A stretch of 64,000 nucleotides of DNA from Candidatus Tayloriibacteriota bacterium (GCA_009695005.1 SIBU01000001.1:77-64076); one strand, 5' to 3'. Shown: positions 11,674 through 56,086, numbered from the stretch's first letter. Notes: generated by a model from the sequence alone, not told the origin. Program-made: numbers and translations.

Positions 11674-12384
11674 TCAAAATTTTCTTTGAGCGTATATCGA
11701 CATACTTCGACGTTTGAACGCCTGACCTCGGCGTAAGTGGGAGTGTGACTTTGTGATTTTAAGAATATCGAAATTCTCATCGAGTAATTTGGAAATTTCA
11801 TTTTCGGTGTACACGTGCTCGGCAACTCCTATTTTTGGATGTATGTATGAACCACTTTCCCCAGCTGGGCTTTCTTTGAGCAGTCTTTCCGCATGTTCAT
11901 CTTCGTCACGTAAAAATGTTTTCCAAAAAAACCATCCTCCTGGTTTTAGGACACGAGAAATTTCAGTTAATAGACTTTTTCTTTCACTTTCATTTAGAAA
12001 ATGTGAGGTCATCATGTCAAGAACAAAATTTTGGGATTTTTCAGGAATATTGATTTGTCCGGCGATGCTTCTTGTTTGGTATTCAATTGACAAATCTTCG
12101 CTTAATTTTTTTGCCAAAAGAATGGCTTCCTCGGATATATCAAAACCTAAACCGCGCATGCCAAAATTTTTGGAAAGATATATAAGGTTTCGTCCATTGC
12201 CACATCCAAGGTCTAGTACCGATGATTTTATGTTTAAATATTCTTTTCCAGATTCACGTTCCAACCATCTTGTGAATTTAATCAAATCCTCGCTTGGATT
12301 TTCCGAAAGCGCAAGGTGATTCCCACCCCTATACTCCTTGTTCCAAAATTCTTGACCCGCTCCACTGTTTCGACTTCTTTTCAT
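11674..12384 (-). CDS. Class I SAM-dependent methyltransferase
   Basis: VLDLGCGNGRN (motif I), followed by GFDISEEA and LKPGGWFF. ATG at 12384, preceded by TACTAT and 6 nt, is preferred over TTG at 12402. Confidence 0.8.
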   Translation of the reverse strand: MKRSRNSGAGQEFWNKEYRGGNHLALSENPSEDLIKFTRWLERESGKEYLNIKSSVLDLGCGNGRNLIYLSKNFGMRGLGFDISEEAILLAKKLSEDLSIEYQTRSIAGQINIPEKSQNFVLDMMTSHFLNESERKSLLTEISRVLKPGGWFFWKTFLRDEDEHAERLLKESPAGESGSYIHPKIGVAEHVYTENEISKLLDENFDILKITKSHSHLRRGQAFKRRSMSIYAQRKF

Positions 12385-12449
12385 TGCGATATAGTACAAC
12401 AAAGGTGGAATTCTCGCATCCTTTACGATCTTCGAGTATACTCCTTAGA

Positions 12450-13199
12450 ATGACAGACAGAATATACATATATGGCAAGCATGCACTAAAGGAGGCACTC
12501 ATCTTTGCTCCGGACGTGCTCGAAGAGGTGTTTCTTGCGAAGCATTTTGACGATACAGAGATTCTTGACCTTATTAGGAGTCACAGTATCAATTTGAGCG
12601 CCAAGATGCCTAGGGAAGTTGGGGACGGTGTAGTTCATCAAGGAATTGTTGGGATGGTTTCGCTTTCCAAGTTAATGCAAGATTACTCTGAATTCGCGGA
12701 TCAACTCGCTGTGGAACCAAGCACATCGCTCGTACTTTTGGATGAACTGCAGGACCCGCAAAATGTTGGGGCTGTGATCCGAAATGCATCGGCATTTGGT
12801 ATTTCAGGTGTACTTATTCCGGAACATAATCAAGCGCAGGTAACAGGTGCTGTTGTTAAGGTTTCAGCGGGGATGGCTTTCAAGATTCCTTTGGTTAAAA
12901 TCGGTAATATCAACACTGTAATTAGAGATTTGAAGGACCGAGGTTTTGCGGTTTATGGATTATCTGCCAACGCAAAATACACAGTAACTAAAGAAGAATT
13001 TGACATGCCCACACTTTTTGTGTTGGGAAGTGAAGGCGAAGGCATTAGACAAAAAACTTTTGAATTGTGCGATAAAGTGCTTTCGATACCGATTAATCCG
13101 AAATGTGAATCTTTGAACGCTGCCGCATCTGCCTCAATTGCCATGTACACTTGGAGCACTAAACATCCTGAAGCTCTTAAGATAAATAAAATTAAATAA
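12450..13199 (+). CDS. SpoU/TrmH-family RNA 2'-O-methyltransferase (RlmB-like)
   Basis: IYGKHALKEAL N-terminal domain. SpoU motifs LDELQDPQNVGAVIRNASAFG, FVLGSEGEGI and SLNAAASASIAMY. The ORF-track start at 12294 lies inside the convergent methyltransferase gene, so ATG 12450 is used. Confidence 0.8.
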   Translation: MTDRIYIYGKHALKEALIFAPDVLEEVFLAKHFDDTEILDLIRSHSINLSAKMPREVGDGVVHQGIVGMVSLSKLMQDYSEFADQLAVEPSTSLVLLDELQDPQNVGAVIRNASAFGISGVLIPEHNQAQVTGAVVKVSAGMAFKIPLVKIGNINTVIRDLKDRGFAVYGLSANAKYTVTKEEFDMPTLFVLGSEGEGIRQKTFELCDKVLSIPINPKCESLNAAASASIAMYTWSTKHPEALKINKIK

Positions 13200-13435
13200 T
13201 AAGTTGGTTCTAGTCGAGGAAGTATTTAGTGTTGAAACATAAGCCTTTTCTTGTTGTCCTTTATGTCCTATTGTTGTCTTTTAAAGTCAGTTTTAATTTA
13301 CTAAGTAATTTTACTTTTAGGGTGAAAATATCATTCATTCCCTTGTATTGTATTCTGTGTTTAATTGCGTTAACGCTCCACCTCTCTGTGTTAATCTCAA
13401 TTTTACAGATGCATCGTTTCTGTTCTGGTATTTTT

Positions 13436-16400
13436 ATGAACTTGAAAATAAGTTTTTATAATGAATGTGTAAGAAATAAATATAAACTGATTAGCCTTTT
13501 TTTGGGAGTCACTCTTTTTTTTGCTGGATATTTGAATGTTTTTGGTTTGGCTCCGGTTGTCTCAGGAGTTTCTATAAGTTCAGATGGTGTCAGGTCAGGG
13601 TTCGCCAAGATTAATGATCAGGTAACTCTCTCATTCATTTCGGATACTGTACTTGATTTTTCTCCAGTAGTTTCAATAAACGGTACAACTACTGGTGTAA
13701 CTTTGTTTAGTCCTTCAGGAAATAGTTGGGTTGCTACTAAGGCCATGACTGCTATTGATGCGACTGGAACTTTGCCTTTTTTTCAAATTGTGACCGCTTC
13801 GACAACTGATGGTGTGCCGTATTTTTCAACTACAACCATGACGGCCGATAATTCAAGCATCATCTTTGATCCGGAATCTCCGATTTTGGTTTCGGCTAAG
13901 CTTACGGGGGGTAATGAAGTAACTTTGAATTTCTCAGAACCTGTATCGGCAGTTACGGAAGATTTTTATGGCATTACTCTTTCTCCGGGTGGAATGAGAA
14001 ATGTTATTAGCATTTCTACGACTACTAATTCATATATTGTAAATTTCGATGGTTTGATCGCCTCAACTAGTGCTGTTGGAATAATTTCTATCGGTGGAGG
14101 TATTTCTGATTTGGCAGGAAATACTTTTTTGGCTACAACAACCAGTGTAGCTGATGGTCAACCTCCAGGATCTCCGGGGACGCCTGTTAAAAGCTTTGGA
14201 GGTAGTACTGCCAATTTTTCAATCGAGTCGGGAGGTTTCTCTGTTACTGTACCTTTAGTAGATAGTGATGCGGTAGTTGGTGATAGTTTGGACTTGAGAC
14301 TTAATGGCAATGGACAAATTGAAGGACTCGCACCTCATGTAATTTCAGTTCAGGATTTAGTTTCAGGTAGTGTGGTTTTTCCAATTTTACATGGTCAACT
14401 TGGTTTAGATGGTCAAAAGGAGATTGTTGCGAAAGTGACGGATGTTGCCGGGAATATTGGTCCTTCTGGACCAGCGCTAATGTTTGCCTTGGATGTTTCA
14501 ATACCAATAATCTCTTCAGCAAAAATTTCGGGGGGTAATCAGCTTACAATCTCATTTAGCAAACCTGTTCAAGTTGTTTTGTCGGATTTTTCTAATTTTA
14601 TAGCCGGTTCCTTGGGTGCTCGAGCATTATCTTCGGTTTCCGGTTCAGGTTCATCTGTCATTTCTCTTTCTTTTTCCGGCACATCTGTATCAAGTATTGC
14701 TACTGGGACGGTTTCGGTTGATGGAAGTATCTTGGATCTTTCTGGAAATAATTTTTTATCTACAACCACGTTAATTTCTGATGGCCAAGGTCCCTCTGTC
14801 ACATTTGATTATTCAAAAAATCCTACTCATCCGGGATATACGGAAATTATAACAGCAACCTTTGATGAATCAATTGCCGACTCGCCTTTACCGAAAATTT
14901 CTCTTTCAGGCTCCAATATTGTCGGTCCTACTGAAATGACAAAAGTTGACGATACTCACTATACTTTTTCTTATATAGTTGATGCTGGCAACGGAACAAC
15001 TACTTCGATGGTTTCCGATGTTCTGGATTTGGCTGGTAATGCTATTGGTAACTTAGTTTCCAACGAAAGTTTTTTTATTGATGGTATTAGGCCATTGGCT
15101 ACGATTAGTTTTTCCAAAGAGGAGGAAAAATCCGGTAATACTGTAACTATTTCAATAGTGACGGATGAGCCTATAGCGGATTCTCCAACATTGAAGATTT
15201 CTATGGAAGGAGGAAATAATTTTGCTCACGAGGTGGCTACTAAGGTTGATAGTACACATTACTTTTTCGAATACACTGTTCAATCTGGAGGTGGGAGTAT
15301 TGCAGTTTATTTGGAGGGGGCAACTGATTTGGCGGGAAATGTGATTAATCCCACACCTACTTTAGAAAATAATTTTACAATAGATAATATTGAGCCATCG
15401 ATTTTAATTTCAAATCCAGACTCCAGCTTTTCACTGTCAAAGGAAGTAACGGCCACTTCTCCGGACGGTGTTTTGAGTTGGCGATTAACCGAAAGCGGAG
15501 TGTGTGATGGTGGTGCTAAGGATTTTATTCCTTATGTACCAGCGGTCTTTACCTCAGAGTCTGATAATGGTAAACAAGTTTGTTATAAAGCTTTAGACGC
15601 GGTTGGCAACACCACGTATGCCACTTCAAATCAAATTGAAGGCATTGATCGAACACCACCTGTGGTAATCTCGGTAACCATTTCTCCAAATGAAGGTCGT
15701 GTGAAAATAAACGATATTGTTACGCTAAATATCACCGCCGATATCTCTGGGTATAGTGCTGGAGAAATAACTATCAATGGGGTTCCGGTAGGTAATTTCT
15801 ATGATTTAGGTCTAGGTGACGGTACATATGTTGCAAGTTATGTTGTTACTGAAGGGGAGACTGACCGCGAAAGCGGTACGTTACCCGTAAGTGTTGTTTT
15901 GTCTGATGCTACCGGTAATCTAAGTTCTCCATATACCACTCCTGAATCAAATACTTTGTCGGTTGATGCAAATATGCCGGAAATTGTATTCGCCAAAACA
16001 ATTTCAACAACTACTATTAACCTTGTTTTCTCTGAGGACCTTGATGGCACTACATTTTCTAGTGAAGGTTCAAGTTTCAGTGTAGAGGGGTTTAATGTTA
16101 TTGAAGCTTCGAAAATTTCCGATAAAGAGCTCAATCTTATAATTAGTAGTGGTATGAATACCGGGGACACCCCTCTTGTGAGTTTCGGAGGGTCAATCAG
16201 GGATCTTGCAGGAAATATTGTTCATGATTTTGTGGCAGTTGTGCCTTTAGACGGGGTATCTCCTATAATTTCCGAAAGTTCTCCCGTACCCGTTGAGGTG
16301 AATGACGTTACTCCTGACTATACTTTTTTTTCTAGTGAGAGCGGAACGATTACTTATTTGGGTGACTGTACTGCCACTACAACTTCCACTGTTTTTGGTT

Positions 16401-18754
16401 TAAATAAAATTACTTTCGGTACTCTTTCTTCCGGTCTACACTCCAATTGTCAAATTAAGATTGTCGATCAAAGTGGAAATGTAGGCAATCAAATTTCTGT
16501 TTCACCATTTACAATAGATTTGATTGTACCAACTGCGGATCTTTCTTCGGAGAGTGTCAGTCCTTTTAATACCTCGCCGATAAAAGTGACGGCGAAATTT
16601 TCTAAACCAGTTTATGATTTTGAGGTTTTTGACGTGATTGTTGGAAATGGTCTTGCCGGTAATTTTGTTTCGGTAGATTCGTCAACTTATACTTTTGATA
16701 TTGTTCCGGCTGGGCAAGGTTCGGTTACTGTCGATGTGCCGGCCACTGTTACACATGATGGAGCATTAAATTTAAATACCGCATCAGCTGAGCTTGTGAG
16801 AGTTTACGACAGTGTACCCCCGATCATTAGTTTTTCTCCGTATGTTATAGCTTCAACAAATCAGGATATAACAGTTAATGCTTCAGTTAACAATGGAGTA
16901 CTTAATTTTGACTCGCACATTTTTACAGAAAACGGTTTCTTTGATTTTGTCGCTAAAGACATTGCTAGCAACATTTCGACATCGACTGTAACCATTTCCA
17001 ATATTGATAAAGTTGCTCCAGTTTTTGTTCCGCATGGTCACGTTCTTGTAGAGGCGGTTAATCAAAATGGCGCCATTGCTTCTTTCACTTTACCTTCGGT
17101 AAATGACGAGATAGACAGTACGCCTTCAGTTTCATGTTCGCCAGTTTCAGGTTTTCAAATGGCTTTAGGTTCGACGACGATTAGTTGTGTCAGTATTGAC
17201 GATGCCGGTAATTCAAGTGAGATGTCTTTTGTTTTAAGTGTTTCGGATACAACAGGACCTTCGATTGTTCCACCAGCTGTTCAAATTTTTGAAGCCACTA
17301 CTACAGTTTCTGTTCCTAATTTGGTTTTGGCGACGGTTGCCGATGCGGTTTCTACAACTACGTTAGAAGTTTATTATTCTCCACATACATTTAATGTCGG
17401 TTCAACTACTGTTACTTGGACAGCTAATGATGGTGCAGGAAATATTTCAGTTAGTAATTCAGTAGTGGTGATTACGGATCATACTCCGCCGGTAGTTACG
17501 AGCAAAGATTCGATTTATCTTCCCGCCAAGTCCGTGCTTGGTGCGCAAGTAGATTACATTTCACCGTTGGCTTTCGATTTGGTTGATGGTTCTTTGTCAA
17601 CAATTTGTGAGCCTGTTTCGGGAAATATTTTTTCAATCGGCACGACGACGGTTAATTGTTTGATTGCCGATTCAAAATTAAATACCTCAACTTCGCAATT
17701 TTATGTGGTGATTAAAAAGCAAGTTCCTTTAACCTCTTCTAGTTCTGTAAATTCGGGTGCGCCGGATATTGTGGTGTCTGCCGCTACTGTTGCTACCTCT
17801 ACGGTAAATGTTCCCAGTGAAGTTTTAAATGCCCGTATCGATATTTCAGCTTTAGTGGTTTCGGGTGTTAATGGTAATTCGGCAACTATCGGTGGGGAAG
17901 TGATAGTTAATTCAAGTACAAGTTTGGGTCAAGTAAAACTTGTTTTGCCTGAAGGCATCACGATTTCCGGTCCGGCCAGTTGGAATGGTTCAATCGGGTT
18001 GCCAAAAATTTTGGCGCAAAGCTCAGTTACACCTATACCAAGTTTTAATATGATTGCCACAGTGGCATCCGTGGTAGAAATTGGTTCCGAAAGTGAGTCA
18101 CTCATACTTTCAAAACCAGCTAGAATTTTACTGCCGAATCAGGCCAACACATCGGTTGGATATAGCCGATCTGGTTCAGTCTTGAATATAATAAACACTG
18201 TTTGTTCGGCTGATGATCAAGTTGTGGTTGAAACTCAGCTCGCAGGTGCAAACTCTGAGTGTAAAATAAATGTTGGAAGTAATTTGGTAATTTGGACAAA
18301 ACATTTCACCTCATTTGTAACTTACAGAGAAATTGTCGCGCCGACCAATGGCCCGGCCGGCCCGACTTTTGCTCCGACTGAGGCAATTCATCCCACCTTG
18401 GCGGGTTTACTCGGCACGACCCGAGTTCCTATTGTGGTCCCTGTGGAAAATGTTGAAAATTCTTTACTCGAAAATTTGGAAACAGAAGCGCCACAAAATA
18501 TAAAATTAAATCAGGCAAAGAAGGCAAAAATTTCTTCTACTGCTACCGTCAGTAAAACTTCTTCTGCACAGAAAAATATCGTTAAAACTGGCAATAATAA
18601 TTTACGTTTAACTTCTAAAGTTTCTGGAAAAGGTCAATTGGCATCTGTGGCAATCTCGCAAGGAACCACTTCACCTTCGGCTATAAAAAAACCCAGTACA
18701 GCCCTAGGTTCATGGTTTAAAAAGGTGATCTCCGGAATTAAGTCAGCATTTTAA
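13436..18754 (+). CDS. Giant surface protein with tandem Ig-like domains and three HYR-like domains
   Basis: The ORF is continuous from 13229; ATG 13436 precedes a signal-anchor-like helix (LISLFLGVTLFFAGYL). Repeated modules end in ...DLAGN... Three consecutive domains have the HYR pattern (..C.P.SG..F..G.T.V.C...D.AGN...). No LPXTG motif. Confidence 0.8.
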   Translation: MNLKISFYNECVRNKYKLISLFLGVTLFFAGYLNVFGLAPVVSGVSISSDGVRSGFAKINDQVTLSFISDTVLDFSPVVSINGTTTGVTLFSPSGNSWVATKAMTAIDATGTLPFFQIVTASTTDGVPYFSTTTMTADNSSIIFDPESPILVSAKLTGGNEVTLNFSEPVSAVTEDFYGITLSPGGMRNVISISTTTNSYIVNFDGLIASTSAVGIISIGGGISDLAGNTFLATTTSVADGQPPGSPGTPVKSFGGSTANFSIESGGFSVTVPLVDSDAVVGDSLDLRLNGNGQIEGLAPHVISVQDLVSGSVVFPILHGQLGLDGQKEIVAKVTDVAGNIGPSGPALMFALDVSIPIISSAKISGGNQLTISFSKPVQVVLSDFSNFIAGSLGARALSSVSGSGSSVISLSFSGTSVSSIATGTVSVDGSILDLSGNNFLSTTTLISDGQGPSVTFDYSKNPTHPGYTEIITATFDESIADSPLPKISLSGSNIVGPTEMTKVDDTHYTFSYIVDAGNGTTTSMVSDVLDLAGNAIGNLVSNESFFIDGIRPLATISFSKEEEKSGNTVTISIVTDEPIADSPTLKISMEGGNNFAHEVATKVDSTHYFFEYTVQSGGGSIAVYLEGATDLAGNVINPTPTLENNFTIDNIEPSILISNPDSSFSLSKEVTATSPDGVLSWRLTESGVCDGGAKDFIPYVPAVFTSESDNGKQVCYKALDAVGNTTYATSNQIEGIDRTPPVVISVTISPNEGRVKINDIVTLNITADISGYSAGEITINGVPVGNFYDLGLGDGTYVASYVVTEGETDRESGTLPVSVVLSDATGNLSSPYTTPESNTLSVDANMPEIVFAKTISTTTINLVFSEDLDGTTFSSEGSSFSVEGFNVIEASKISDKELNLIISSGMNTGDTPLVSFGGSIRDLAGNIVHDFVAVVPLDGVSPIISESSPVPVEVNDVTPDYTFFSSESGTITYLGDCTATTTSTVFGLNKITFGTLSSGLHSNCQIKIVDQSGNVGNQISVSPFTIDLIVPTADLSSESVSPFNTSPIKVTAKFSKPVYDFEVFDVIVGNGLAGNFVSVDSSTYTFDIVPAGQGSVTVDVPATVTHDGALNLNTASAELVRVYDSVPPIISFSPYVIASTNQDITVNASVNNGVLNFDSHIFTENGFFDFVAKDIASNISTSTVTISNIDKVAPVFVPHGHVLVEAVNQNGAIASFTLPSVNDEIDSTPSVSCSPVSGFQMALGSTTISCVSIDDAGNSSEMSFVLSVSDTTGPSIVPPAVQIFEATTTVSVPNLVLATVADAVSTTTLEVYYSPHTFNVGSTTVTWTANDGAGNISVSNSVVVITDHTPPVVTSKDSIYLPAKSVLGAQVDYISPLAFDLVDGSLSTICEPVSGNIFSIGTTTVNCLIADSKLNTSTSQFYVVIKKQVPLTSSSSVNSGAPDIVVSAATVATSTVNVPSEVLNARIDISALVVSGVNGNSATIGGEVIVNSSTSLGQVKLVLPEGITISGPASWNGSIGLPKILAQSSVTPIPSFNMIATVASVVEIGSESESLILSKPARILLPNQANTSVGYSRSGSVLNIINTVCSADDQVVVETQLAGANSECKINVGSNLVIWTKHFTSFVTYREIVAPTNGPAGPTFAPTEAIHPTLAGLLGTTRVPIVVPVENVENSLLENLETEAPQNIKLNQAKKAKISSTATVSKTSSAQKNIVKTGNNNLRLTSKVSGKGQLASVAISQGTTSPSAIKKPSTALGSWFKKVISGIKSAF

Positions 18755-18867
18755 TTGTCGGTTTCTCAAAAGAATTTTTATAGGTATCGGGGCGAAAGAG
18801 AATTTGAGTTTGAACGGGGCGCTAAATATTTGACAAAATATGAGTTTTAATATATTATTCAATTCCA

Positions 18868-22210: not shown

Positions 22211-22219
22211 TGCTATAAT
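22211..22219 (+). promoter_or_regulatory. Extended -10 promoter (TGcTATAAT) 6 nt upstream of ATG 22226
   Basis: tgcTATAAT, then ttacat, then ATG. This predicts a leaderless transcript for the envelope operon. Confidence 0.5.
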
Positions 22220-28847: not shown

Positions 28848-28856
28848 TGTTATTAT
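28848..28856 (+). promoter_or_regulatory. Extended -10 (TGtTATTAT) 7 nt upstream of ATG 28864
   Basis: tgtTATTAT, then ttaaccc, then ATG. Confidence 0.4.
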
Positions 28857-37250: not shown

Positions 37251-37360
37251 AGTAAAAAAAGATACCACATTACTTTTGGCTATTGATTTATAAATTAAAT
37301 ATGTTATTGTCAAACTAGATTTGATCCATTTTAAATAGGTTAGTGAAAGTGAGGGGATTA

Positions 37361-38452: not shown

Positions 38453-39361
38453 ATGGCTAACCGGCACCTTGCACGTTCAACAGTTTTACAAACACTCTTT
38501 GAGTGGGATTTCAACGGTCAAAAGCCGACTGATGATTTAGAGTTGATTCTTGAGCGCGATGTGCTTGAATTTGCCCCGGGTATCGGCGATACAGCCTTTA
38601 TGCGTGAGCTTCTTCGTTCAATTTTGGAGAAGCGTGGAGACATAGATATGATAATTGAAAAGGCTGCTCCAGACTGGCCTCTCAATAAAATTTCAATTGT
38701 GGACCGCAATGTTTTGCGTATTGGTCTTTATGAATTGCTTTTTGCCGATAAAAATGAGGTCCCTGAAAAAGTAGCAATTAATGAGGCTATTGAATTGGCA
38801 AAAACTTACGGCGGTGAAAATAGTGGTAAGTTTGTGAACGGAGTTCTCGGTTCTGTTTATAAAGAACTAGGTGAACCGGGTAAGGACGTTGTTTCTAAAA
38901 AAAGTAAGCGTAAAAATGATGTGCCTTTTGAAAAAATGCTCATTCAAAAACTTGGTGGTGCCGTTGTTTACGCACGTGATGGAAGCGATGTGTATCTTGC
39001 ACTAGTTCACGATATTTTTGGTCACTGGACGCTATCAAAAGGAAAAATTGAGGTTGATGAAAATGTGGAGCAGGGTACCATTAGAGAGATTAAGGAGGAG
39101 CTCGGCGTGGATATTGTTATAAAAGAACAACTTGGAAAAAACGAGTATGTTGCATCAGACCCCGAGAAAGGAAAAATTCGAAAACAAGTTAATTATTTTT
39201 TAGGGGAGACAAAGTTTGAAACACTTAAACTCGGCACTTCTGGAGGATTGGATGATGCCAGATGGTTTAAAATGGCCGATATTGTGTCACTTAACATTTA
39301 TAACGATATTCTCCCGATAGTGACTAAGGCAGTAAATATTCTATTACAAGATAAAAAATAA
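38453..39361 (+). CDS. nusB: NusB antitermination factor fused to a C-terminal Nudix hydrolase domain
   Basis: N-terminal ~150 aa: RHLARSTVLQTLFEWDF...DRNVLRIGLYELLF...INEAIELAKTYGGENSGKFVNGVLG (NusB). C-terminal part: GKIEVDENVEQGTIREIKEELGV, a perfect Nudix box Gx5Ex7REUxEExGU. Confidence 0.8.
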   Translation: MANRHLARSTVLQTLFEWDFNGQKPTDDLELILERDVLEFAPGIGDTAFMRELLRSILEKRGDIDMIIEKAAPDWPLNKISIVDRNVLRIGLYELLFADKNEVPEKVAINEAIELAKTYGGENSGKFVNGVLGSVYKELGEPGKDVVSKKSKRKNDVPFEKMLIQKLGGAVVYARDGSDVYLALVHDIFGHWTLSKGKIEVDENVEQGTIREIKEELGVDIVIKEQLGKNEYVASDPEKGKIRKQVNYFLGETKFETLKLGTSGGLDDARWFKMADIVSLNIYNDILPIVTKAVNILLQDKK

Positions 39362-40227: not shown

Positions 40228-40262
40228 CAAGATCCGAGGCAACAAAATTGCCTCGGATCTTG
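40228..40262 (+). terminator. Terminator hairpin after rnc
   Basis: Perfect 13-bp stem caagatccgaggc / gcctcggatcttg. The T-tract is weak. Confidence 0.55.
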
Positions 40263-40386
40263 TACTTTGTGAGGTTTAGTTGTAGTGTCTAATTCGATTA
40301 AAAAAATCGGAGCGGTTTCTACCGTTTTCGCGATAGTTCACCAAAACAAAACGGGCCGTAGTAAGCCCATCCCAAAAGGATAAATT

Positions 40387-40890: not shown

Positions 40891-40896
40891 TATAAT
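40891..40896 (+). promoter_or_regulatory. TATAAT -10 box 7 nt upstream of the smc ATG
   Basis: TATAAT, then tttccat, then ATG 40904. Confidence 0.4.
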
Positions 40897-40903: not shown

Positions 40904-43195
40904 ATGTATTTGAAAAGTCTGGAACTTTCTGGATTCAAATCCTTCGCCAAAAAGACGGAGCTGAATTTTTCAACCCCGATTACTTCGATTGTGGGTCCAA
41001 ACGGCAGTGGAAAGAGCAATATTGCGGAAGCTTTTCGTTTTGTACTTGGCGAGCAGTCCATCAAGTCTATGCGAGGAAAACGCACGGAAGATTTGATATG
41101 GAATGGTGGGGGAGATGCGGCGAGAGCGAACAGAGCGTCTGTTAAAGTGGTTTTTGATAATCATAAAAGAATTTTGAATGTTGATTTTGACGAGGTTTCG
41201 GTTGAGCGTGTGATTTATCGAGATTCTTCAAGCGAATATTTTATTAACGGCACTCAGGTGCGGTTAAAGGATGTTATTGAGCTTCTGGCCGCTGCTCATA
41301 TTGGCTCAAGTGGACACCACATAATTTCCCAAGGCGAAGCGGATAAAATTTTGAATGCCAACGGTCGTGAGCGTCGCGATATGCTTGAAGATGCATTGGG
41401 TCTTAAAATCTATCAATATAAGCGTGAGGAGAGTGAACGTAAGCTTGAGAAGACGGAGGAGAATATGGAAAAAGTGGAATCACTTAGACGTGAAATCGCG
41501 CCTCATTTGAAGTTTCTAAAAAAACAAGTTGAAAAAATTGAAAAAACTATTGAGCTTAAAGAGGAATTGCGTAAACTTGCTAAGGAATATTTTAAGCGTG
41601 AAGATACATTTATAAAGCATAATAAAAATGCGATTGTTGAAGAGAAGAAAAAACCTGAAGACGATTTGAAAAGGCTTCATGAGGAACTCATAAGGGCGAA
41701 AGAAACATTGGAGAAGTCCGCCAGTCGTGATGGTAAATCTAACGAAATCATAAAACTAGAAAATGACTTGTCAGTTTTGCGTTCAGAGAAAGATACTTTT
41801 GTTCGTGAACTCGGTAGAATCGAAGGTTCCATAGGAAGTGAGGAAAGAATTATTCGTCGAGAGGAGGAAAATGCCTTACGTGAGGGTAACCAAAATGTGC
41901 CACTTAAAGAAGTGCAGGCTACGGCCACGATTATTGAGGAAAAAATAAAGGAACTTGAAAATCGTCGTGATGACGGATCTGTTATGGCGTTTTTCACTTT
42001 TGTTCGGAAAACCTTTTCCGAGTTTATTTCGCGACATAAGCAGTCGGGCCCTGTTTCGGTGAGGGCTCAATCAGAGGAAGAGATTTTAAAGTTAAAACAA
42101 GAGAGACTGACACTTGAAGGTAAACTTAAAGATTGTAATGAACGTGAGGTTGTATTACGGAAAAACCTATTCACTCTACAAGAAAGAATTGAGAAAGAAA
42201 AAGATTCAAGCCGCGAAGCTGAACGTGACATGTTCCGTATCATGACTGAGGAAAATAATGTAAGAAGTTTGTTGGCAAGCATTAAATCTAAGGAAGAGAG
42301 GTCGATGCTTTTTGAAGAGAATTTTAAAAGAGACCTCCATGAGGTTGCTTTACTTCTGGGACGTGAGATGTTGGATTTTGCTGTGTTTGCTATTATTTCG
42401 GAACAAGGAGTAACCTTAAATCTTCAAGAGATTACACTTGAAGATCGGACAAAACAAGAAGATCGTAGGCGACTTGTGGAAAAAATGAAGATTAGAATTG
42501 AGGATGCTGGCGCTGGTGGCGGAGAAGAAGTGCTTAAAGAATACAGAGAAACTTCGGAAAGAGATGTTTTTTTGGAAAAGGAACTTTCCGATTTGCATTT
42601 GTCTGCCGATTCTCTTAGAAGTCTCATTAAAGAATTGGAGGAAAAGCTTGATAACGAGTTTCGTGAAGGAGTTTCTACAATTAACATACAATTCGGACAA
42701 TTTTTCACGCTCATGTTCGGTGGAGGTTTTGCTAAACTTGAAATTATTCGTGAAGTAAAGAGAAGAAAAAGCGATACGGATATTGAAATATTGACGGAAG
42801 ACGGGTCAACCGGCGATTCTTTTGAAGAATCGCCGGTTGAAGAAGGTATTGAGATTGAAGTCGGTCTTCCTCGTAAAAAAATCAAAGGTCTCATGATGCT
42901 TTCCGGTGGTGAGCGAGCACTGACTTCTATAGCGCTTCTGTTTGCAATTTCTCAGGTAAATCCTCCACCGTTTGTTATCTTGGATGAAACCGATGCCGCC
43001 CTTGATGAAGCCAATTCAAAAAAGTATGGAGATATGATCGAAAGTCTTTCCAAGCTTTCTCAGCTTATCCTTATTACTCACAATCGCGAGACAATGTCTC
43101 GAGCCGGAGTACTTTACGGTGTGACTATGGGTTCAGGTGGAGTGTCAAAATTGTTGTCTATCGCATTTGATGAAGCTGTTGCTGTAGCGAAGTAA
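40904..43195 (+). CDS. smc: SMC chromosome-condensation ATPase, short form (763 aa) without a recognisable hinge
   Basis: N-terminal head MYLKSLELSGFKSFAKKTELNFSTPITSIVGPNGSGKSNI..FRFVLGEQS. C-terminal head LSGGERALTSIALLFAI...FVILDETDAALDEAN...ITHNRETM..A..LYGVTM. The middle is E/K/R/L-rich coiled coil only. Confidence 0.85.
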   Translation: MYLKSLELSGFKSFAKKTELNFSTPITSIVGPNGSGKSNIAEAFRFVLGEQSIKSMRGKRTEDLIWNGGGDAARANRASVKVVFDNHKRILNVDFDEVSVERVIYRDSSSEYFINGTQVRLKDVIELLAAAHIGSSGHHIISQGEADKILNANGRERRDMLEDALGLKIYQYKREESERKLEKTEENMEKVESLRREIAPHLKFLKKQVEKIEKTIELKEELRKLAKEYFKREDTFIKHNKNAIVEEKKKPEDDLKRLHEELIRAKETLEKSASRDGKSNEIIKLENDLSVLRSEKDTFVRELGRIEGSIGSEERIIRREEENALREGNQNVPLKEVQATATIIEEKIKELENRRDDGSVMAFFTFVRKTFSEFISRHKQSGPVSVRAQSEEEILKLKQERLTLEGKLKDCNEREVVLRKNLFTLQERIEKEKDSSREAERDMFRIMTEENNVRSLLASIKSKEERSMLFEENFKRDLHEVALLLGREMLDFAVFAIISEQGVTLNLQEITLEDRTKQEDRRRLVEKMKIRIEDAGAGGGEEVLKEYRETSERDVFLEKELSDLHLSADSLRSLIKELEEKLDNEFREGVSTINIQFGQFFTLMFGGGFAKLEIIREVKRRKSDTDIEILTEDGSTGDSFEESPVEEGIEIEVGLPRKKIKGLMMLSGGERALTSIALLFAISQVNPPPFVILDETDAALDEANSKKYGDMIESLSKLSQLILITHNRETMSRAGVLYGVTMGSGGVSKLLSIAFDEAVAVAK

Positions 43196-44105: not shown

Positions 44106-44957
44106 TTATTGTTTTAGTAAAATGACTCCAAGAATAGTTACTATTGTTCCTGCAATTTTAAAAAAAAGATTATTTTTTTCTTTTAATAGAACGATTCCGG
44201 AAATTACTACCACCAAAGAGCTTGTTTGAAGAATTGGATAAGCAATTGTCACAGGAAGAAGTAAATATGTTTTAAGTATACAAAAATATGAAATGGCGGA
44301 CGATACGCTTATACCAACAGCAGGCCAGAATTTATTCTTAAAAACTTCCTTAAAGTTTTCTCTTCTTGGCTGTGGAATTGAGAGGAGTATTAATCCGGGT
44401 ATGAAGTAAACTAGAAAACCATATACATTCGGATCAAAAAATCCAAGAGAAAATTTATCCATAATCGGGGCGATGGCAGCAATCGTGGACGATAGAATTG
44501 TTAATTGAACACCACGATTTTTAAAATTACCAAATTTTCTTTCAGGATGAAAAATTGCTATAGTAATTCCAAGAGCAATCAGTACTGTTCCGAAAAATGC
44601 TTTCCCACTCCACGATTCCCCCAAGAGTAATATTCCGAGTAGAAATACGACAATTGCCCTTAATTGACTAATAGGTTCTCTCAGTGAAACCGGTGTATGT
44701 TTATGCGAATTTAAGCTCGTTACCGCGATAATTGCCCAAACTATACTTGCCAGAGTAAGGGCTAATAGTGGTGTAGTGTTACTTGGAAAAGAGAAATGGA
44801 TTATTGCAGATGGAAGAAATATTAACGCAGCGGTAAATTGAATAAAAATTGCAAGACCTAAAACATTTGTTGTTTCTGCACTATAACGGCTTAGAATTTT
44901 TGAACTTGCTCCAAAGATTATAGCTCCTAAAATATAAATTATAGAAATAGGTGTCAT
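44106..44957 (-). CDS. EamA/DMT-family transporter
   Basis: 283 aa with about 10 hydrophobic helices in two halves (EamA-like). Its start overlaps the rnr stop by 4 nt. Confidence 0.7.
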   Translation of the reverse strand: MTPISIIYILGAIIFGASSKILSRYSAETTNVLGLAIFIQFTAALIFLPSAIIHFSFPSNTTPLLALTLASIVWAIIAVTSLNSHKHTPVSLREPISQLRAIVVFLLGILLLGESWSGKAFFGTVLIALGITIAIFHPERKFGNFKNRGVQLTILSSTIAAIAPIMDKFSLGFFDPNVYGFLVYFIPGLILLSIPQPRRENFKEVFKNKFWPAVGISVSSAISYFCILKTYLLLPVTIAYPILQTSSLVVVISGIVLLKEKNNLFFKIAGTIVTILGVILLKQ

Positions 44958-46909
44958 TGTAGAGAATAGTCCAATGTTTTGCGCTCAATATCGGCTCCGG
45001 AAACTTTAAATTTTATCTTATCACCAAGTGAAAATCTTTTCTTTGTTTTCTCACCAACTAGAGAGTAGGTTTTTTCCTCCAGTACATAATAGTCGTCACC
45101 AAGATCACGAAGTTTAATCATACCTTCACATCTTGTGTCTTTTTCCTCAATGTACATTCCCCATTCTGTGACGCCTGAAATAATGCCATCAAAAGTTTGT
45201 CCCACTCTCTCACTCATATATTCAACCTGCTTTAATTTTTTTGAATCTCGTTCGGCTTCAGCTGCTGCAATTTCCTGCTCAGAATTCTCGCGTGCCATTT
45301 TTTCATACGAGTGCCACTCGTTTTGTGGAATACCTGTACCGTTTAAATGATGAAAAAGCACCCTGTGGACTAGAAGGTCGGCATAACGTCGGATAGGGGA
45401 GGTAAAGTGCGTGTAATAGTCAAATGAGAGCCCAAAATGGCCTATATTGATAGTAGAGTAAATAGCTTTAGCCATGCTTCTGACTGCTGCGGTTTTAATC
45501 ATTGATTCTTCAGCGCGACCTTCAATTTTACTAAACAATACTTGTAAGTCTTTTGCGGATACGTTGCCTCCACGCATTGTTAAATCAAAACCTAGTGCTT
45601 TAAGAAAAATTCCTAAGTTCGCAATTCGCTCGCGGTCAGGGAGATCATGAATTCGGTAGATAAAAGGCTCATCACTTTTTTTATTTTCGCGCGCTTTGAA
45701 AATAAATTCGGCAACTTCTTTGTTGGCTAGAAGCATGTATTCTTCAACCAATTTATGAGTATCAAGACGCTTCTTTTTATAAATTTTAATTGGTCTACCT
45801 GTTTCATCAAGTTCAAAACGAACCTCGTCCTGTTCGAAGTCTATGGCGCCTTTTTTGAATTTCTCATCGCGCATCTTTTTTGCGAGCGCGTTCAGTGTTT
45901 CTAGTTCGTTTTTATGTTCCGTTGATTTTCCGTCTAAAACATCTTGGGCCGCTTCATAGGTGAAGCGTTTGGCCGAGTGGATTATTGTCTTACCAAACCA
46001 GCGACTTTTTACTTTACCTTGAGCGTCCAATTCAAATACAGCTGAAAAAGTAAGACGATCTTCGTTCGGCTTCAAACTGCAGACCTCATTTGAAAGGGCC
46101 TCAGGAAGCATCGGGATAGTGCGGTCTACAAGATAGACTGAAAATCCGCGCTTTAAGGCCTCGCGGTTTAATTCAGTGTGTTCGCGGACAAAGTGCGACA
46201 CATCTGCAATATGTACACCTATTTCAAAATTTCCATTTGGAAGTTTCTTGAAAGAAATGGCGTCGTCAAAATCTTTAGCATCGATTGGGTCAATCGTGAA
46301 AGTTAATGTTTGACGAAAATCTCGACGTTTTGCTAGTTCATTTGGGGTTATGGTGCCAAAGTTTTTTGATATGGACTCTGCTTCTTCCTCAACTTCGGGC
46401 GGAAATTCGGTAGCAAAACCTTTGCTCATAACAATGGCGGACATTTCGACATCATGAATACCTTTCTTGCCGATTATCTTGATTATTTTTCCTTCGGGAT
46501 TTCTGTTTGGGTCAGTCCAGTCATTTATTTTCACCAACACTTTGATGTTATCCTGAGCTTCAGAGCTCACGTCTCCAACTATGGCAATATCCTTGTAGAC
46601 TTTTTTGTCGTCGGGAATGAGGAATAGACGGCCGTTTTCATGTTCTAGTGTGCCAACGAATTCCATCTTCGCTCTTTTAATAATTTTGGTTACTTTACCT
46701 ACGGTTCTTCCTTTAACTTTTTTTGGTAAGATGACGAATTCAACCTCGTCTTTGTTGAGAGCAGTGTTTAAATTTTCGTTTTCAATTAAAATATCTTCCT
46801 CTTTGCCTTGAATTTCAATAAAACCAAGGCCTTTGCCTGCGATGCGGATGATACCGGTAAGTATCGGATGTTTGCTCGTTGCCTCGGAGGTTTTTTGACT
46901 TTTCTTCAT
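44954..46909 (-). CDS. rnr: Ribonuclease R (RNB-family 3'-5' exoribonuclease)
   Basis: DPIDAKDFDDAIS, LVDRTIPMLP, HFGLSFDYYTHFTSPIRRYADLLVHR, and a C-terminal S1 domain (GIISGVTEWGMYIE). ATG 46909 is preceded by TGtTAAACT and 8 nt. Confidence 0.9.
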   Translation of the reverse strand: MKKSQKTSEATSKHPILTGIIRIAGKGLGFIEIQGKEEDILIENENLNTALNKDEVEFVILPKKVKGRTVGKVTKIIKRAKMEFVGTLEHENGRLFLIPDDKKVYKDIAIVGDVSSEAQDNIKVLVKINDWTDPNRNPEGKIIKIIGKKGIHDVEMSAIVMSKGFATEFPPEVEEEAESISKNFGTITPNELAKRRDFRQTLTFTIDPIDAKDFDDAISFKKLPNGNFEIGVHIADVSHFVREHTELNREALKRGFSVYLVDRTIPMLPEALSNEVCSLKPNEDRLTFSAVFELDAQGKVKSRWFGKTIIHSAKRFTYEAAQDVLDGKSTEHKNELETLNALAKKMRDEKFKKGAIDFEQDEVRFELDETGRPIKIYKKKRLDTHKLVEEYMLLANKEVAEFIFKARENKKSDEPFIYRIHDLPDRERIANLGIFLKALGFDLTMRGGNVSAKDLQVLFSKIEGRAEESMIKTAAVRSMAKAIYSTINIGHFGLSFDYYTHFTSPIRRYADLLVHRVLFHHLNGTGIPQNEWHSYEKMARENSEQEIAAAEAERDSKKLKQVEYMSERVGQTFDGIISGVTEWGMYIEEKDTRCEGMIKLRDLGDDYYVLEEKTYSLVGEKTKKRFSLGDKIKFKVSGADIERKTLDYSLQ

Positions 46910-46917: not shown

Positions 46918-46926
46918 AGTTTAACA
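46918..46926 (-). promoter_or_regulatory. Extended -10 (TGtTAAACT) 8 nt upstream of the rnr ATG
   Basis: The complement of agtttaaca reads tgttaaact, followed by accacact and then ATG. Confidence 0.4.
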
Positions 46927-47302: not shown

Positions 47303-47335
47303 AGTGTAAGCAACTCTAAATCCAGCTCTCGTGTA

Positions 47336-47360
47336 AAGGCAACCTGCGGTTGCCTTTTTT
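47336..47360 (+). terminator. Rho-independent terminator
   Basis: Stem aaggcaacc / ggttgcctt with a 3-nt loop, then TTTTTT. Confidence 0.75.
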
Positions 47361-47368: not shown

Positions 47369-47377
47369 TGTTAGTAT
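47369..47377 (+). promoter_or_regulatory. Extended -10 (TGtTAGTAT) 7 nt upstream of the rpsP ATG
   Basis: tgtTAGTAT, then tgcctcc, then ATG 47385. Confidence 0.45.
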
Positions 47378-47384: not shown

Positions 47385-47756
47385 ATGTTAAAAATCAGAT
47401 TACAGAGGGTGGGCAGGACCAATATCCCGACGTTTCGTGTGGTTTTGACCGACTCAAAAAACAGCACTAAAAGTGGCCGTTTTCTTGAAGTTTTGGGTTC
47501 ATACGATCCTCGCGATGATAAGAGTAAATTAATTAAAACTGATCGAGTCAAGTATTGGATTTCTAAAGGAGCTCAGCCTTCAGACACACTTCATAACTTT
47601 TTGGTTCACACCAAGGTGATTGAAGGAAAGAAGAAAAATGTTCTTCCTTTTAAAAGACCAATCAAAAAAGAGGAGGAAGTTAAAAAGGAAGCTGAATCGA
47701 AAGTTGCTCCTGCCACCCCTGTGGCTGAGGTTTCAAAAGAAGAAGTAAAAGCCTAA
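47385..47756 (+). CDS. rpsP: 30S ribosomal protein S16 with a Lys/Glu-rich C-terminal extension
   Basis: MLKIRLQRVGRTNIPTFRVVLTDS...LEVLGSYDPR...W...GAQPS. Confidence 0.9.
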   Translation: MLKIRLQRVGRTNIPTFRVVLTDSKNSTKSGRFLEVLGSYDPRDDKSKLIKTDRVKYWISKGAQPSDTLHNFLVHTKVIEGKKKNVLPFKRPIKKEEEVKKEAESKVAPATPVAEVSKEEVKA

Positions 47757-47767
47757 ATTAAAACAAT

Positions 47768-47803
47768 AAACCCCCGTCCCGACATTCCTCGGGACGGGGG
47801 TTT
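47768..47803 (+). terminator. Rho-independent terminator
   Basis: 13-bp stem aacccccgtcccg / cgggacgggggtt, then ttg. Confidence 0.7.
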
Positions 47804-47940
47804 GTCCTTACTTTCCACTTTACACATTACAGTTTTAACTTTATACTTGCATCTAGCAGTACGTAAGAACGGCGGAACATTATTATTGCCGCAATAACGG
47901 TCGAAACTGCTGAATGAATTACAAATCAAATACTACTTAG

Positions 47941-48258: not shown

Positions 48259-48279
48259 GAAAAAAGGAGAGAAAACAAA

Positions 48280-48308
48280 ATGCCGCACTAAATGCGGCAT
48301 TTTGTTTT
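48280..48308 (+). terminator. Rho-independent terminator
   Basis: Stem atgccgca / tgcggcat, then TTTGTTTT. Confidence 0.75.
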
Positions 48309-48487
48309 CTTGCTTTTCTGTGCCACAGTGCCAAGTTGTGGGGAGTTCCTTGTTGAAGTATCAGACTTTCTTTGTTATAGTCGATTTGGTACCAATGAAG
48401 TAGCATGTGCGCCCTGGTCTCTCGGTCGGACAGGTGGCCCTTGTCTGGCGCAGTTTGGACAACCCCAAACTACCGGGTAATATTCCT

Positions 48488-48527: not shown

Positions 48528-48560
48528 GTTGTATCTAAAGGTCCTTGAAAGGAATAAAAT

Positions 48561-49070: not shown

Positions 49071-49095
49071 CATTGGTTTCTGTGAGTATTAACAG

Positions 49096-49121
49096 CCGTT
49101 CACTCTTGTGGACGGTTTTTT
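49096..49121 (+). terminator. Rho-independent terminator
   Basis: Stem ccgttcac / gtggacgg (one G-U pair), then TTTTTT. It lies inside the ORF-track 5' extension of trmD. Confidence 0.65.
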
Positions 49122-49158
49122 CTTGCCTTTTTTCTCTACACACTATACTCTAGACGTT

Positions 49159-51102: not shown

Positions 51103-51111
51103 TGATATAAT
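51103..51111 (+). promoter_or_regulatory. Extended -10 promoter (TGaTATAAT) for the metK leader
   Basis: tgaTATAAT, directly followed by a second overlapping TATAAT. Confidence 0.5.
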
Positions 51112-51147
51112 ATAATTGATTTGATAGACTAGGGTTACAATTTAATA

Positions 51148-51300
51148 ATTATCAAGAAGACGTGAAGAGCATCTGGCTCGTTGATACGTCTAGCAACTTG
51201 GTCCAAGCGAATGCGAGGAACAAAGTGCTCACCAGAGATCCCTTCGGGGAAAGATAATGTCGATTACATCTTTCCGCGTAATGCGGATTTTTAATTTATT
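51148..51300 (+). promoter_or_regulatory. SAM-I (S-box) riboswitch with terminator/antiterminator expression platform
   Basis: P1: attatc (51148-53) pairs with gataat (51253-58). AAGAAGACGUGAAGAGCAUCUGGCUCGUUGAUACGUCUAGCAAC aligns to the consensus AAGAGAGGUGGAGGGACUGGCCCGAUGAAACCCGGCAACC. GUGCUCACCAG; P4 is UCCC-UUCG-GGGA. Antiterminator: ggaaagat (51248-55) pairs with atctttcc (51268-75). Terminator: tccgc/gcgga plus a U-run (51273-51292). Confidence 0.85.
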
Positions 51301-52366: not shown

Positions 52367-52413
52367 ATTTGAAAATAAGATTGATGATTATTGAGTATAA
52401 AAAGATAGATAAA

Positions 52414-52447
52414 AATACCCCGCCCGACATAAGTCGGGCGGGGTATT
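52414..52447. terminator. Bidirectional terminator
   Basis: Perfect 15-bp stem aataccccgcccgac / gtcgggcggggtatt with an ataa loop, flanked by A- and T-runs. Sits between convergent genes. Confidence 0.85.
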
Positions 52448-52471
52448 TTAAATTTAATTTGAATATTGATT

Positions 52472-54152: not shown

Positions 54153-54161
54153 TGGTATAAT
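54153..54161 (+). promoter_or_regulatory. Extended -10 (TGgTATAAT) 6 nt upstream of ATG 54168
   Basis: tggTATAAT, then aggggc, then ATG. Confidence 0.5.
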
Positions 54162-54167
54162 AGGGGC

Positions 54168-55103: not shown

Positions 55104-55154
55104 AATTTTGGTGGATAGGATGTCTAGAACGCCTATTATTAATTTATTAATTAA

Positions 55155-55163
55155 TGTTATAAT
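55155..55163 (+). promoter_or_regulatory. Extended -10 (TGtTATAAT) 8 nt upstream of ATG 55172
   Basis: tgtTATAAT, then ttaaaact, then ATG. Confidence 0.45.
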
Positions 55164-55171
55164 TTAAAACT

Positions 55172-56086
55172 ATGAAAAATACACTTATAACAATTTTGGT
55201 AGTTGCGGTTGTGGGACTAGGTGCTTATATGTTGTTTCAGACACCATCTGATAAGGTGCCAGTAACACAGGACAGTTCGGTAAATACTACTCAAGCTGAT
55301 GGAAACACTCAGACCGACGCTTCTGTTGTGAAGAAGGAAAATAAAGAAAAGACTGTTATCGGTAAGTCTGTCGGAGGACGAGATATTGTCGCCTACCATT
55401 TCGGTACGGGTAATTCCGAAATATTATTTGTCGGAGGCATTCATGGAGGTTATGAATGGAATACTTCCTTGGTTGCGTATGAAGCAATGGATTATTTTAA
55501 GGCAAATCTTTCCATCATTCCTGCAAATGTAAAAATTACGGTTATTCCTGTTTTAAATCCGGATGGACTTTATAAGGTGGTAGGAACAACCGAAAAGTTT
55601 AGCGCTTCACAAGTGTCTCCTTCACAGACGATTCAGACTGCGGGACGCTTTAATGCAAATAATGTAGACCTTAATCGAAATTTTGATTGTGATTGGAAAT
55701 CTACTGCTAAGTGGCAAAGTAGGACCGTCAGCGGTGGGAGCTCGATGTTTTCTGAGCCTGAAAGTTTGGCAATCAAATCTTATGTAGAGGTCAATAAACC
55801 TACAGCTGTGATTACTTGGTACAGTGCTGCAGGTGGAGTTTATTCTTCAAGTTGTGAGACGGGTATTTCTTCCGAGACAAAAACTATTACAAAGAAATAT
55901 GCTGATGCCTCTGGTTATCCTTCATATGAAAGTTTTGATTCTTACGAGACCACCGGAGATATGGTCAACTGGTTCGCCAAGAACAGTATTCCAGCAATCA
56001 GCGTATTACTTACAAATCATGAGGATACTGAATGGACAAAGAATAAGGCAGGTATTGATTCCTTACTTAAATATTACGCTAAATAA
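55172..56086 (+). CDS. M14-like carboxypeptidase paralog, predicted catalytically inactive
   Basis: FVGGIHGGYEWN and DLNRNFDCDW are conserved. The third zinc ligand position reads WYS (not WHS), and the catalytic-Glu position reads SVLLT (not TVELK as in the downstream paralog). Confidence 0.7.
   Translation: MKNTLITILVVAVVGLGAYMLFQTPSDKVPVTQDSSVNTTQADGNTQTDASVVKKENKEKTVIGKSVGGRDIVAYHFGTGNSEILFVGGIHGGYEWNTSLVAYEAMDYFKANLSIIPANVKITVIPVLNPDGLYKVVGTTEKFSASQVSPSQTIQTAGRFNANNVDLNRNFDCDWKSTAKWQSRTVSGGSSMFSEPESLAIKSYVEVNKPTAVITWYSAAGGVYSSSCETGISSETKTITKKYADASGYPSYESFDSYETTGDMVNWFAKNSIPAISVLLTNHEDTEWTKNKAGIDSLLKYYAK

Follow-up and report, generated by a model that had tools for sequence, protein, structure and literature searches.

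Extended −10 elements next to start codons predict widespread leaderless mRNAs in a Paceibacteria-type bacterium

Introduction

The stretch of DNA considered here, 64,000 nucleotides from Candidatus Tayloriibacteriota bacterium (GCA_009695005.1 SIBU01000001.1:77-64076; hereafter the window, with positions counted from its first letter), raises the question of where its mRNAs begin. Ahead of many genes that stand first in their transcription unit, a −10 promoter hexamer of the form TAnnnT, often with a TGn extension, ends only a few nucleotides before the start codon. The original prediction took this recurrent (TGn)TAnnnT element as a sign of widespread leaderless mRNAs, and the analysis bears this out as far as sequence can: a peak at a spacing of 6–7 nt, restriction to first genes, a preference for ATG and conservation among orthologues all point the same way, and the view that mRNAs with no leader, or one of at most 3 nt, are widespread is well supported at the sequence level. 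We consider it highly probable that roughly a third or more of the transcription units in this lineage have sigma-70-type promoters that would place the start of transcription on the A of the ATG.

Promoter elements adjoin start codons in the window

Throughout, d denotes the number of nucleotides between the end of the −10 hexamer and the start codon. With curated starts, TANNNT lies at d = 6–8 in 17 of 38 first-in-unit genes, compared with a mean of 4.8 in shuffled upstream regions, while its TGn-extended form, TGNTANNNT, does so in 8 of the 38 against a mean of 0.31. None of 5000 dinucleotide-preserving shuffles attained either observed count, so that the spacing on which the original prediction relied does depart from that of shuffled upstream regions. 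Adjacent 3-nt spacing bins hold 1–10 genes with TANNNT and 0–1 with TGNTANNNT. The same spacing stands out under a blind rule that considers open reading frames (ORFs) no shorter than 100 aa, preceded by a gap of 60 nt or more, and takes the first ATG of each. In 12 of 32 window genes so defined TANNNT lies at d = 6–9, as against 5 in a control bin; 19% of genes have it at d = 6 and 16% at d = 7, over a background of about 3% per position. When gene calls are dispensed with altogether, the window contains eight cases in which TGNTANNNT at d = 6–8 precedes an ATG that opens an ORF of at least 80 aa, and none for the composition-matched motif TNNNATNGT. In this last test TANNNT alone is noisy, because codon periodicity within genes yields in-frame peaks, and it needs either the TGn extension or a restriction to upstream regions.

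These figures bear directly on whether the pattern could be chance in AT-rich DNA or an artefact of start choice. TANNNT is a common hexamer at the window's GC content of 39%, occurring at about 4% per position upstream of genes, and the starts at 12384, 46909, 49159 and 4442 were picked with the motif in view. Nevertheless, the shuffle, spacing and gene-call-free tests already effectively refute such an explanation: no shuffle reached the counts, the blind rule and the gene-call-free test give the same peak, and the composition-matched motif is flat. The starts of bS16, SMC, DnaE and the PIF1-like helicase are, moreover, fixed by homology (see below). We therefore regard chance or artefact as scarcely credible.

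All ten −10 hexamers of the original prediction are present in the sequence with spacings of 6–8 nt, and five candidates can be added to them. The fifteen sites are as follows.

4428–4433, plus strand: TATTGT with TTGCAT 17 bp upstream, 8 nt before ATG 4442 of a zinc-finger protein; an added, weaker candidate
12391–12396, minus strand: TACTAT without TGn, 6 nt before ATG 12384 of a SAM-dependent methyltransferase
12437–12442, plus strand: TATACT, 7 nt before ATG 12450 of a SpoU/TrmH-type RNA methyltransferase; added
18853–18858, plus strand: TATTAT with TTGACA 17 bp upstream, 9 nt before ATG 18868 of a DEAD-box helicase; added
22211–22219, plus strand: TGcTATAAT, 6 nt before ATG 22226 of a 136-aa protein with no Pfam match
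28848–28856, plus strand: TGtTATTAT, 7 nt before ATG 28864 of a PIF1-like helicase
31862–31870, plus strand: TGcTAATAT, 6 nt before ATG 31877 of a PD-(D/E)XK nuclease
36331–36336, minus strand: TATAAT (context tagTATAAT), 6 nt before ATG 36324 of DnaE
40891–40896, plus strand: TATAAT, 7 nt before ATG 40904 of SMC, with a T-rich terminator-like stretch immediately 5′
46918–46926, minus strand: TGtTAAACT, 8 nt before ATG 46909 of RNase R (Met26 of the longest ORF)
47369–47377, plus strand: TGtTAGTAT, 7 nt before ATG 47385 of ribosomal protein bS16 (rpsP)
49144–49149, plus strand: TATACT, 9 nt before ATG 49159 of TrmD; added
54153–54161, plus strand: TGgTATAAT, 6 nt before ATG 54168 of a VanY-type D-Ala-D-Ala carboxypeptidase
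55155–55163, plus strand: TGtTATAAT, 8 nt before ATG 55172 of an M14 carboxypeptidase
57003–57011, plus strand: TGgTAAATT, 6 nt before ATG 57018 of an 84-aa protein with no Pfam match; added

The TGn extension is found at seven of the ten sites first listed and at 8 of the 15 overall. As had been noted, none of the Shine-Dalgarno (SD) cores GGAG, GAGG, AGGA or AAGG lies between the −10 hexamer and the ATG at the ten sites, nor is there an SD box between the −10 and the start at the five added ones. For the DEAD-box helicase at 18868 the predicted leader is 0–3 nt long.

Two of the sites sit in short divergent spacers. The genes at 12384 and 12450 are separated by 65 bp (12385–12449) with back-to-back promoters, and both look leaderless; dnaE and rnhB are separated by 40 bp (36325–36364), again with back-to-back promoters, and there the TATAAT of dnaE on the minus strand overlaps a plus-strand TATACT located 26 nt before the rnhB ATG.

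The signal recurs across the lineage

The window derives from a bacterium of the Patescibacteria, or Candidate Phyla Radiation (CPR), of Paceibacteria (Parcubacteria) type. The nearest relatives of its RNase R protein (44954–46909, minus strand) are encoded in Patescibacteria, Paceibacteria or Parcubacteria metagenome-assembled genomes (MAGs), with at most 74% identity and with labels such as Taylorbacteria, Nomurabacteria, Lloydbacteria and similar, and an identical protein is recorded in ENA assembly ERZ1305449 and in Logan SRR8561390; relatives are known from the Hainich groundwater wells H41, H43 and H52. Relatives were compared at 59 CPR loci around RNase R, taken from species-representative genomes, and at 80 metagenomic loci around the PIF1-like helicase, which with the RNase R CPR loci make up about 2 Mb; 21 Sphingobacteriaceae (Bacteroidota) loci from the RNase R search served as a control. 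The next-best RNase R homologues after the CPR ones (L055–L080), about 50% identical, all belong to Sphingobacteriaceae (Mucilaginibacter, Pedobacter), perhaps because of horizontal transfer, perhaps because of how the pattern-based search sampled them.

Across the CPR loci and the window, and without gene calls, TGNTANNNT followed by an ATG that opens an ORF of at least 100 aa was found 131, 118, 35, 47 and 37 times at d = 6, 7, 8, 9 and 10, respectively, and about ten times at each of the other spacings. GTG is weakly enriched after the motif (12 and 9 cases at d = 6 and 7) and TTG is not (1 case at d = 6, the 15 at d = 7 being in-frame background). Of 284 TGn candidates, 215 (76%) have a T or C immediately before the ATG. 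Clustering of the encoded proteins sorts these 284 candidates into 98 groups; the pattern thus involves many gene families rather than a few genes. Control motifs are flat, and the Bacteroidota loci lack the 6–7-nt peak.

Gene calls in the relatives, crude as they are, reveal where in a transcription unit the signal resides. TANNNT occurs 6–9 nt ahead of 259 of 734 first genes, compared with 103 in the control bin. TGn boxes at these spacings precede about 17% of first genes, with TGNTANNNT accounting for 5, 6, 3 and 3% at d = 6, 7, 8 and 9, whereas operon-internal genes show about 1% per spacing or less. In the pooled data, the TG positions, −15 and −14, are T in 53% and G in 47% of cases.

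Promoters and starts are conserved among orthologues

Orthologues from dozens of divergent relatives were scored for a −10 hexamer (TANNNT) lying 5–10 nt before the start. For bS16, 54 of 58 keep it, 49 with TGn, and the rpsP consensus reads TTGACC-17-TGTTAnTAT-(6-7)-ATG, with TTG 16–18 bp upstream in 50 of 54 loci. The PIF1-like helicase keeps the −10 in 73 of 83 orthologues (50 with TGn; consensus TGnTAnAAT), together with a conserved MTQK start, and its promoters mostly lack a −35, TTG being present 16–18 bp upstream in 7 of 67. DnaE keeps it in 19 of 24, mostly as tagTATAAT at 6 nt; SMC in 26 of 40, 20 of them with TGn (consensus TGtTAnAAT); and TrmD in 30 of 47. For RNase R, among hits whose alignment begins no later than query residue 5, the figure is 8 of 13, and many further Paceibacteria orthologues carry TGnTAnnnT 6–10 nt before the start. 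Genes with leaders are at background: 12 of 35 orthologues for NusB, 8 of 33 for RNase III and 9 of 48 for KhpA.

Homology also fixes several of the starts themselves. The bS16 protein read from ATG 47385 aligns from residue 1–2 with solved bS16 chains, the Pfam domain begins at residue 2 in SMC, 7 in DnaE and 3 in the PIF1-like helicase, and the alignment of each of the 80 metagenomic PIF1 homologues begins at query residue 1. These alignments leave no room for a start further downstream in any of the four genes. What the sequence shows directly is the motif and where it lies, its confinement to first genes, the preferences for start codon and −1 base and the conservation among orthologues.

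An element found so regularly at the position of a ribosome-binding site might act there. TAnnnT could be an A/T-rich non-SD ribosome-binding or enhancer signal within a 5′ untranslated region (UTR), as in GeneMarkS-2 group B (Bacteroidota), a view that would suit an AT-rich genome with very low SD use. Such a signal should precede internal genes too, however, and TGnTAnnnT is found at about 1% there as opposed to about 17% of first genes. The TG dinucleotide, the TTGACC at 17 bp (50 of 54 rpsP loci), the pyrimidine at −1 and the dearth of TTG starts are properties of promoters and transcription start sites, and the Bacteroidota control loci show no peak. We consider a translational signal of this kind very unlikely, and take the elements to be promoters.

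Terminators isolate several of the units

Between 36001 and 56000 the window contains 38 terminator-like hairpins, compared with 16 in shuffled sequence. Terminators stand immediately 5′ of the rpsP and trmD promoters, leaving about 30–40 nt before the ATG: the −35-like TTGCCT of rpsP lies within the 3′ arm of the terminator hairpin at 47335–47357, and the −10 of trmD is directly 3′ of the terminator at 49094–49117. The arrangement indicates that each gene begins a unit of its own, in which a leader would hardly fit. GC-rich, near-perfect hairpins with stems of 15–19 bp at 47766–47805, 52412–52449, 48269–48311 and 40228–40262 score on both strands and are probably bidirectional terminators between units.

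This arrangement is pertinent to a different objection, namely that the promoters are real but that most protein is made from longer transcripts, arising from upstream promoters or read-through, by SD-free internal initiation, with leaderless mRNAs in a minor role. Operon-internal genes and many leadered first genes do initiate without an SD, so SD-independent internal initiation must exist, and some of the candidates lie only 47–88 nt after a gene on the same strand. On the other hand, terminators or divergence isolate rpsP, trmD, 12384/12450, dnaE/rnhB and rnr, while the conserved 6–7-nt spacing, the preference for ATG and the pyrimidine at −1 are hard to explain unless selection acts on a transcript that begins with AUG. 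A predominance of longer transcripts accordingly seems unlikely to us, although less so than a translational role for the motif.

Shine-Dalgarno boxes mark a small minority of genes

If many first genes are leaderless, how much use is made of SD boxes? Three genes of the window had been singled out as carrying classical boxes, and all three boxes are present.

37351–37356, plus strand: SD-like GAGGGG, 4 nt before ATG 37361 (6-nt spacer from the GAGG core); gene product with a weak NUDIX match
40375–40380, plus strand: SD-like AAAGGA, 6 nt before ATG 40387 of a 144-aa protein with no Pfam match
48547–48553, plus strand: SD-like GAAAGGA, 7 nt before ATG 48561 of a 169-aa protein with no Pfam match

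The closest relative (L001) seems to have retained the last of these. Under the blind rule the window thus has SD-like boxes at 3 of 32 first genes, with none in the control bin (2.6% in the pooled data), an excess over chance that is marginal. In the pooled lineage, SD cores are found 5–9 nt ahead of 76 of 734 first genes as against 19 in the control bin, and a minority of first genes, about 10%, are probably SD-led. A first reading of the window counts, that SD is wholly absent, was dropped on account of this small but real peak. Operon-internal genes, in the window and in the relatives, have an SD core at 5–9 nt in about 0–3% of cases, which is background. Only 2 of the 259 first genes with a −10 also have an SD core at 5–9 nt, a result that is partly trivial, as the two motifs would overlap.

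These figures do not sustain the division between leaderless core genes and SD-led orphan genes that had been proposed along with the leaderless reading. The leaderless candidates include genes of unknown or accessory function (22226, 57018, the PIF1-like helicase, the PD-(D/E)XK nuclease, VanY and M14), and many core genes, among them nusB, rnc, khpA, rpoB and rnhB, lack both a close −10 and an SD. The SD side of the division fares no better, operon-internal genes being essentially SD-free and the three boxes in the window being marginal.

Two observations on internal genes may be added. One further SD-like box in the window, GAGGAAG, lies 6 nt before the GTG start of an operon-internal gene (13229–18754, plus strand) that encodes a protein of 1841 aa with HYR and bacterial Ig-like domains, probably a surface protein. 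In the CPR loci, operon-internal starts are preceded by A at −6 in 61% and at −3 and −2 in 55% of cases each, and by T at −1 in 56%, with G depleted; this bias may be a Kozak-like or coupling signal, or may simply reflect the stop codons of upstream genes.

The SD-poor regime fits what has been described for the ribosome of these organisms. According to passages of a study of Parcubacteria, only 48% of them have a detectable anti-SD sequence (CCTCCT), many of them lack bS21, and their bS1 is short (Tsurumaki et al., 2022, RNA 28:1041, PMC9297842). Across loci, the fraction of SD-led genes and the fraction of leaderless genes show a weak anticorrelation (Spearman −0.28, p = 0.018), which lends some support to a regime of SD-independent initiation that would be lineage-wide and co-evolved with a reduced ribosome. 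We are inclined, if by no great distance, to think that Paceibacteria run largely on such initiation, with at least a third of units leaderless, internal genes SD-free and SD-led first genes amounting to about 10%.

A model for initiation

In the mechanism that these features suggest, promoters would consist mostly of TGnTAnnnT, some with a TTGnnn −35 element at 17 ± 1 bp, and the −10 would end 6–7 nt, or up to 10 nt, before the ATG. Motif, position and conservation suggest that the sigma-70 holoenzyme binds the extended −10, with or without a −35. Transcription would start at a purine 7–8 nt downstream of the −10 and preceded by a pyrimidine; with 6–7 nt between the −10 and the ATG, this canonical geometry would make the A of the ATG position +1, and the 5′ end of the transcript would be AUG or, rarely, GUG. 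An mRNA of this kind would have neither a 5′ UTR nor an SD box; for its translation, the ribosome and initiator tRNA would have to bind directly to the start codon at its 5′ end. The SD-free downstream genes of operons would presumably rely on coupling, re-initiation or A-rich unstructured spacers, and a small minority of leadered first genes would carry SD-like boxes.

Several points weigh against this model. The transcription start point, and with it the mode of translation, is something we infer from promoter geometry only. TACTAT, TAAACT and TATTGT are weak −10 matches, at least one of the 17 TANNNT matches, that in a terminator T-run at metK, is clearly due to chance, and sites with spacings of 8–10 nt would give leaders of 1–3 nt, which is not strictly none. 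A generic scan for TTGACA-N16-18-TATAAT found 48 matches compared with 46.4 in shuffles, that is, no enrichment; the scan is uninformative because many of the promoters are extended −10 promoters without a −35, and the signal is carried by the −10 and TGn elements and their position, not by a generic −35/−10 consensus. Among 80 loci, a pattern search for conserved 16S rRNA sites found only a truncated 5′ part (L061) and no 3′ end. Finally, gene calls in the relatives are ORF-based, and orthologues from different loci are not independent observations.

Comparison with known leaderless systems

A Pribnow box 6–8 nt from the start codon is the leaderless signature of GeneMarkS-2 group C, which has been reported mainly for Actinobacteria and Deinococcus-Thermus, with about 25–50% of operons predicted to be leaderless (PMC6028130). 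The architecture is therefore not unusual in kind. What appears to be new is its predicted presence in Patescibacteria/Paceibacteria, the group C signature in a further lineage; the literature searched, with incomplete coverage, contained no report of leaderless genes in Patescibacteria, Paceibacteria or the CPR.

Group C Actinobacteria (Mycobacterium tuberculosis, M. smegmatis, Corynebacterium, Streptomyces) share with the present lineage a −10 TANNNT positioned 6–8 nt upstream in first genes, the lack of an SD at leaderless genes, an ATG or GTG at the 5′ start and a similar leaderless fraction. They differ in being GC-rich and free-living, whereas here the genome is a reduced CPR one with 39% GC, and in using SD boxes for their remaining and internal genes, where the internal genes here have essentially none. 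The TGn extension is also prominent here in comparison with group C (7 of the 10 original sites, and about 50% each for T and G in the pooled data). Deinococcus deserti, as relayed in PMC6028130 (de Groot et al., 2014), offers a close parallel: the majority of its mapped transcripts are leaderless, with a −10 right before the start, as is predicted here, and its leaderless mRNAs prompted many re-annotations of start codons, for which bS16 is the counterpart in the window. That case, from another phylum and of different base composition, was verified by differential RNA sequencing and proteogenomics, whereas ours is a prediction.

In haloarchaea, leadered and internal genes mostly do without an SD (Haloferax literature). 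These organisms (Haloferax volcanii, Halobacterium salinarum; group D) likewise have many leaderless first genes, and in its combination of leaderless first genes with SD-free internal genes the present lineage resembles them more than it does Actinobacteria. Their promoters are of the TATA/BRE type, about 22–26 nt from the start, as opposed to the sigma-70-type extended −10 at 6–8 nt seen here. Bacteroidota (group B) resemble the lineage in their near lack of SD boxes and in the A-rich, G-poor sequence upstream of internal and leadered genes, but there a single non-SD motif, not a promoter, precedes first and internal genes alike, whereas here the motif keeps to first genes and bears the marks of a promoter. 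The Parcubacteria ribosome study (PMC9297842) concerns the same lineage and its ribosome components; its passages on these do not deal with the 5′ architecture of mRNAs or with promoters.

Start annotation and wider significance

The original prediction also held that start-codon annotation would be affected, and in this it was right, though the example is a different one. It had named, along with the 12384 start, rnr, for which public calls already use the start at 46909 (651 aa); they agree with the starts at 54168, 55172, 49159 and 51305 as well. The gene that is miscalled is rpsP. The public call for bS16 on this very contig has 115 aa and begins at GTG 47409, behind an SD-like 'cagagg', while the protein read from ATG 47385 (47385–47756, plus strand) has 123 aa. 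The shorter version omits the conserved N-terminus MLKIRLQR and, given that solved bS16 structures align from the beginning of the longer one, is 8 conserved residues short. bS16 is thus a concrete case of SD-biased start calling failing on a predicted leaderless gene.

The CPR/Patescibacteria comprise a large and almost uncultivated part of bacterial diversity, and what is known of their genes comes almost wholly from automatic annotation. Should a third of their units be leaderless, with SD boxes rare, prediction trained on such boxes will misplace starts, as it already has for bS16, and SD-biased tools would have put the gene starts of thousands of CPR MAGs systematically at risk. The CPR would then also be the third major bacterial group with prevalent leaderless mRNAs, and the first that is AT-rich and has reduced genomes. 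The promoter model TGnTAnnnT-N6-7-ATG, optionally with TTGACC at 17 bp, could serve operon prediction and the design of expression tools for the few CPR bacteria that can be cultivated. The predicted architecture would, in addition, match on the mRNA side the reported loss of the anti-SD and bS21 from Parcubacteria ribosomes, and how reduced ribosomes find start codons becomes a directly testable question.

The metK leader and neighbouring genes

Promoters of the same class can also feed long leaders. At 51103–51111 on the plus strand, TGATATAAT forms the extended −10 (TGaTATAAT) of the metK unit, with a predicted leader of about 190 nt. Rfam searches at gathering thresholds gave 0 matches over the whole window, and tRNA and rRNA searches of the window found none. 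A permissive search returned a SAM-I (S-box, RF00162) match at 51146–51260 (plus strand) that spans the full-length model (1–108) with E = 6.9e-6; its score of 34.5 bits is below the gathering score of 44.4. A terminator hairpin (51273–51287) lies between this match and the metK ATG at 51305. The leader is probably a divergent SAM-I riboswitch, judging by the match and the terminator, and the original description of a long riboswitch leader behind a promoter of this class was essentially right. Divergent CPR variants of SAM-I may be missed by standard annotation. A second perfect TGATATAAT at 30569–30577 (plus strand), about 40 nt upstream of ATG 30618 (a 390-aa protein of unknown function), is likely to be a leadered promoter of the metK class.

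The GC skew of the window is positive throughout, and the plus strand bears most of its genes. Pfam scans gave a map of about 49 genes that includes DnaE, RNase HII, a NusB-NUDIX fusion, RNase III, a short SMC, RNase R, bS16, KhpA, TrmD, MetK, RpoB and RpoC along with accessory and unknown genes. The SMC protein (40904–43195, plus strand) has 763 aa, with Pfam SMC_N covering residues 2–748; bacterial SMC proteins are typically about 1,150–1,200 aa long, and the short form implies a much shortened coiled coil. The fusion of NusB and NUDIX hydrolase domains (38453–39361, plus strand) has 302 aa and a MANR start that is conserved in 35 relatives. Two stretches of the plus strand each hold a tandem pair of paralogues: two GH130-domain proteins of about 630–644 aa at 7829–11663, and two M14 carboxypeptidases at 55172–56970, the second M14 gene sharing one base with the stop codon of the first.

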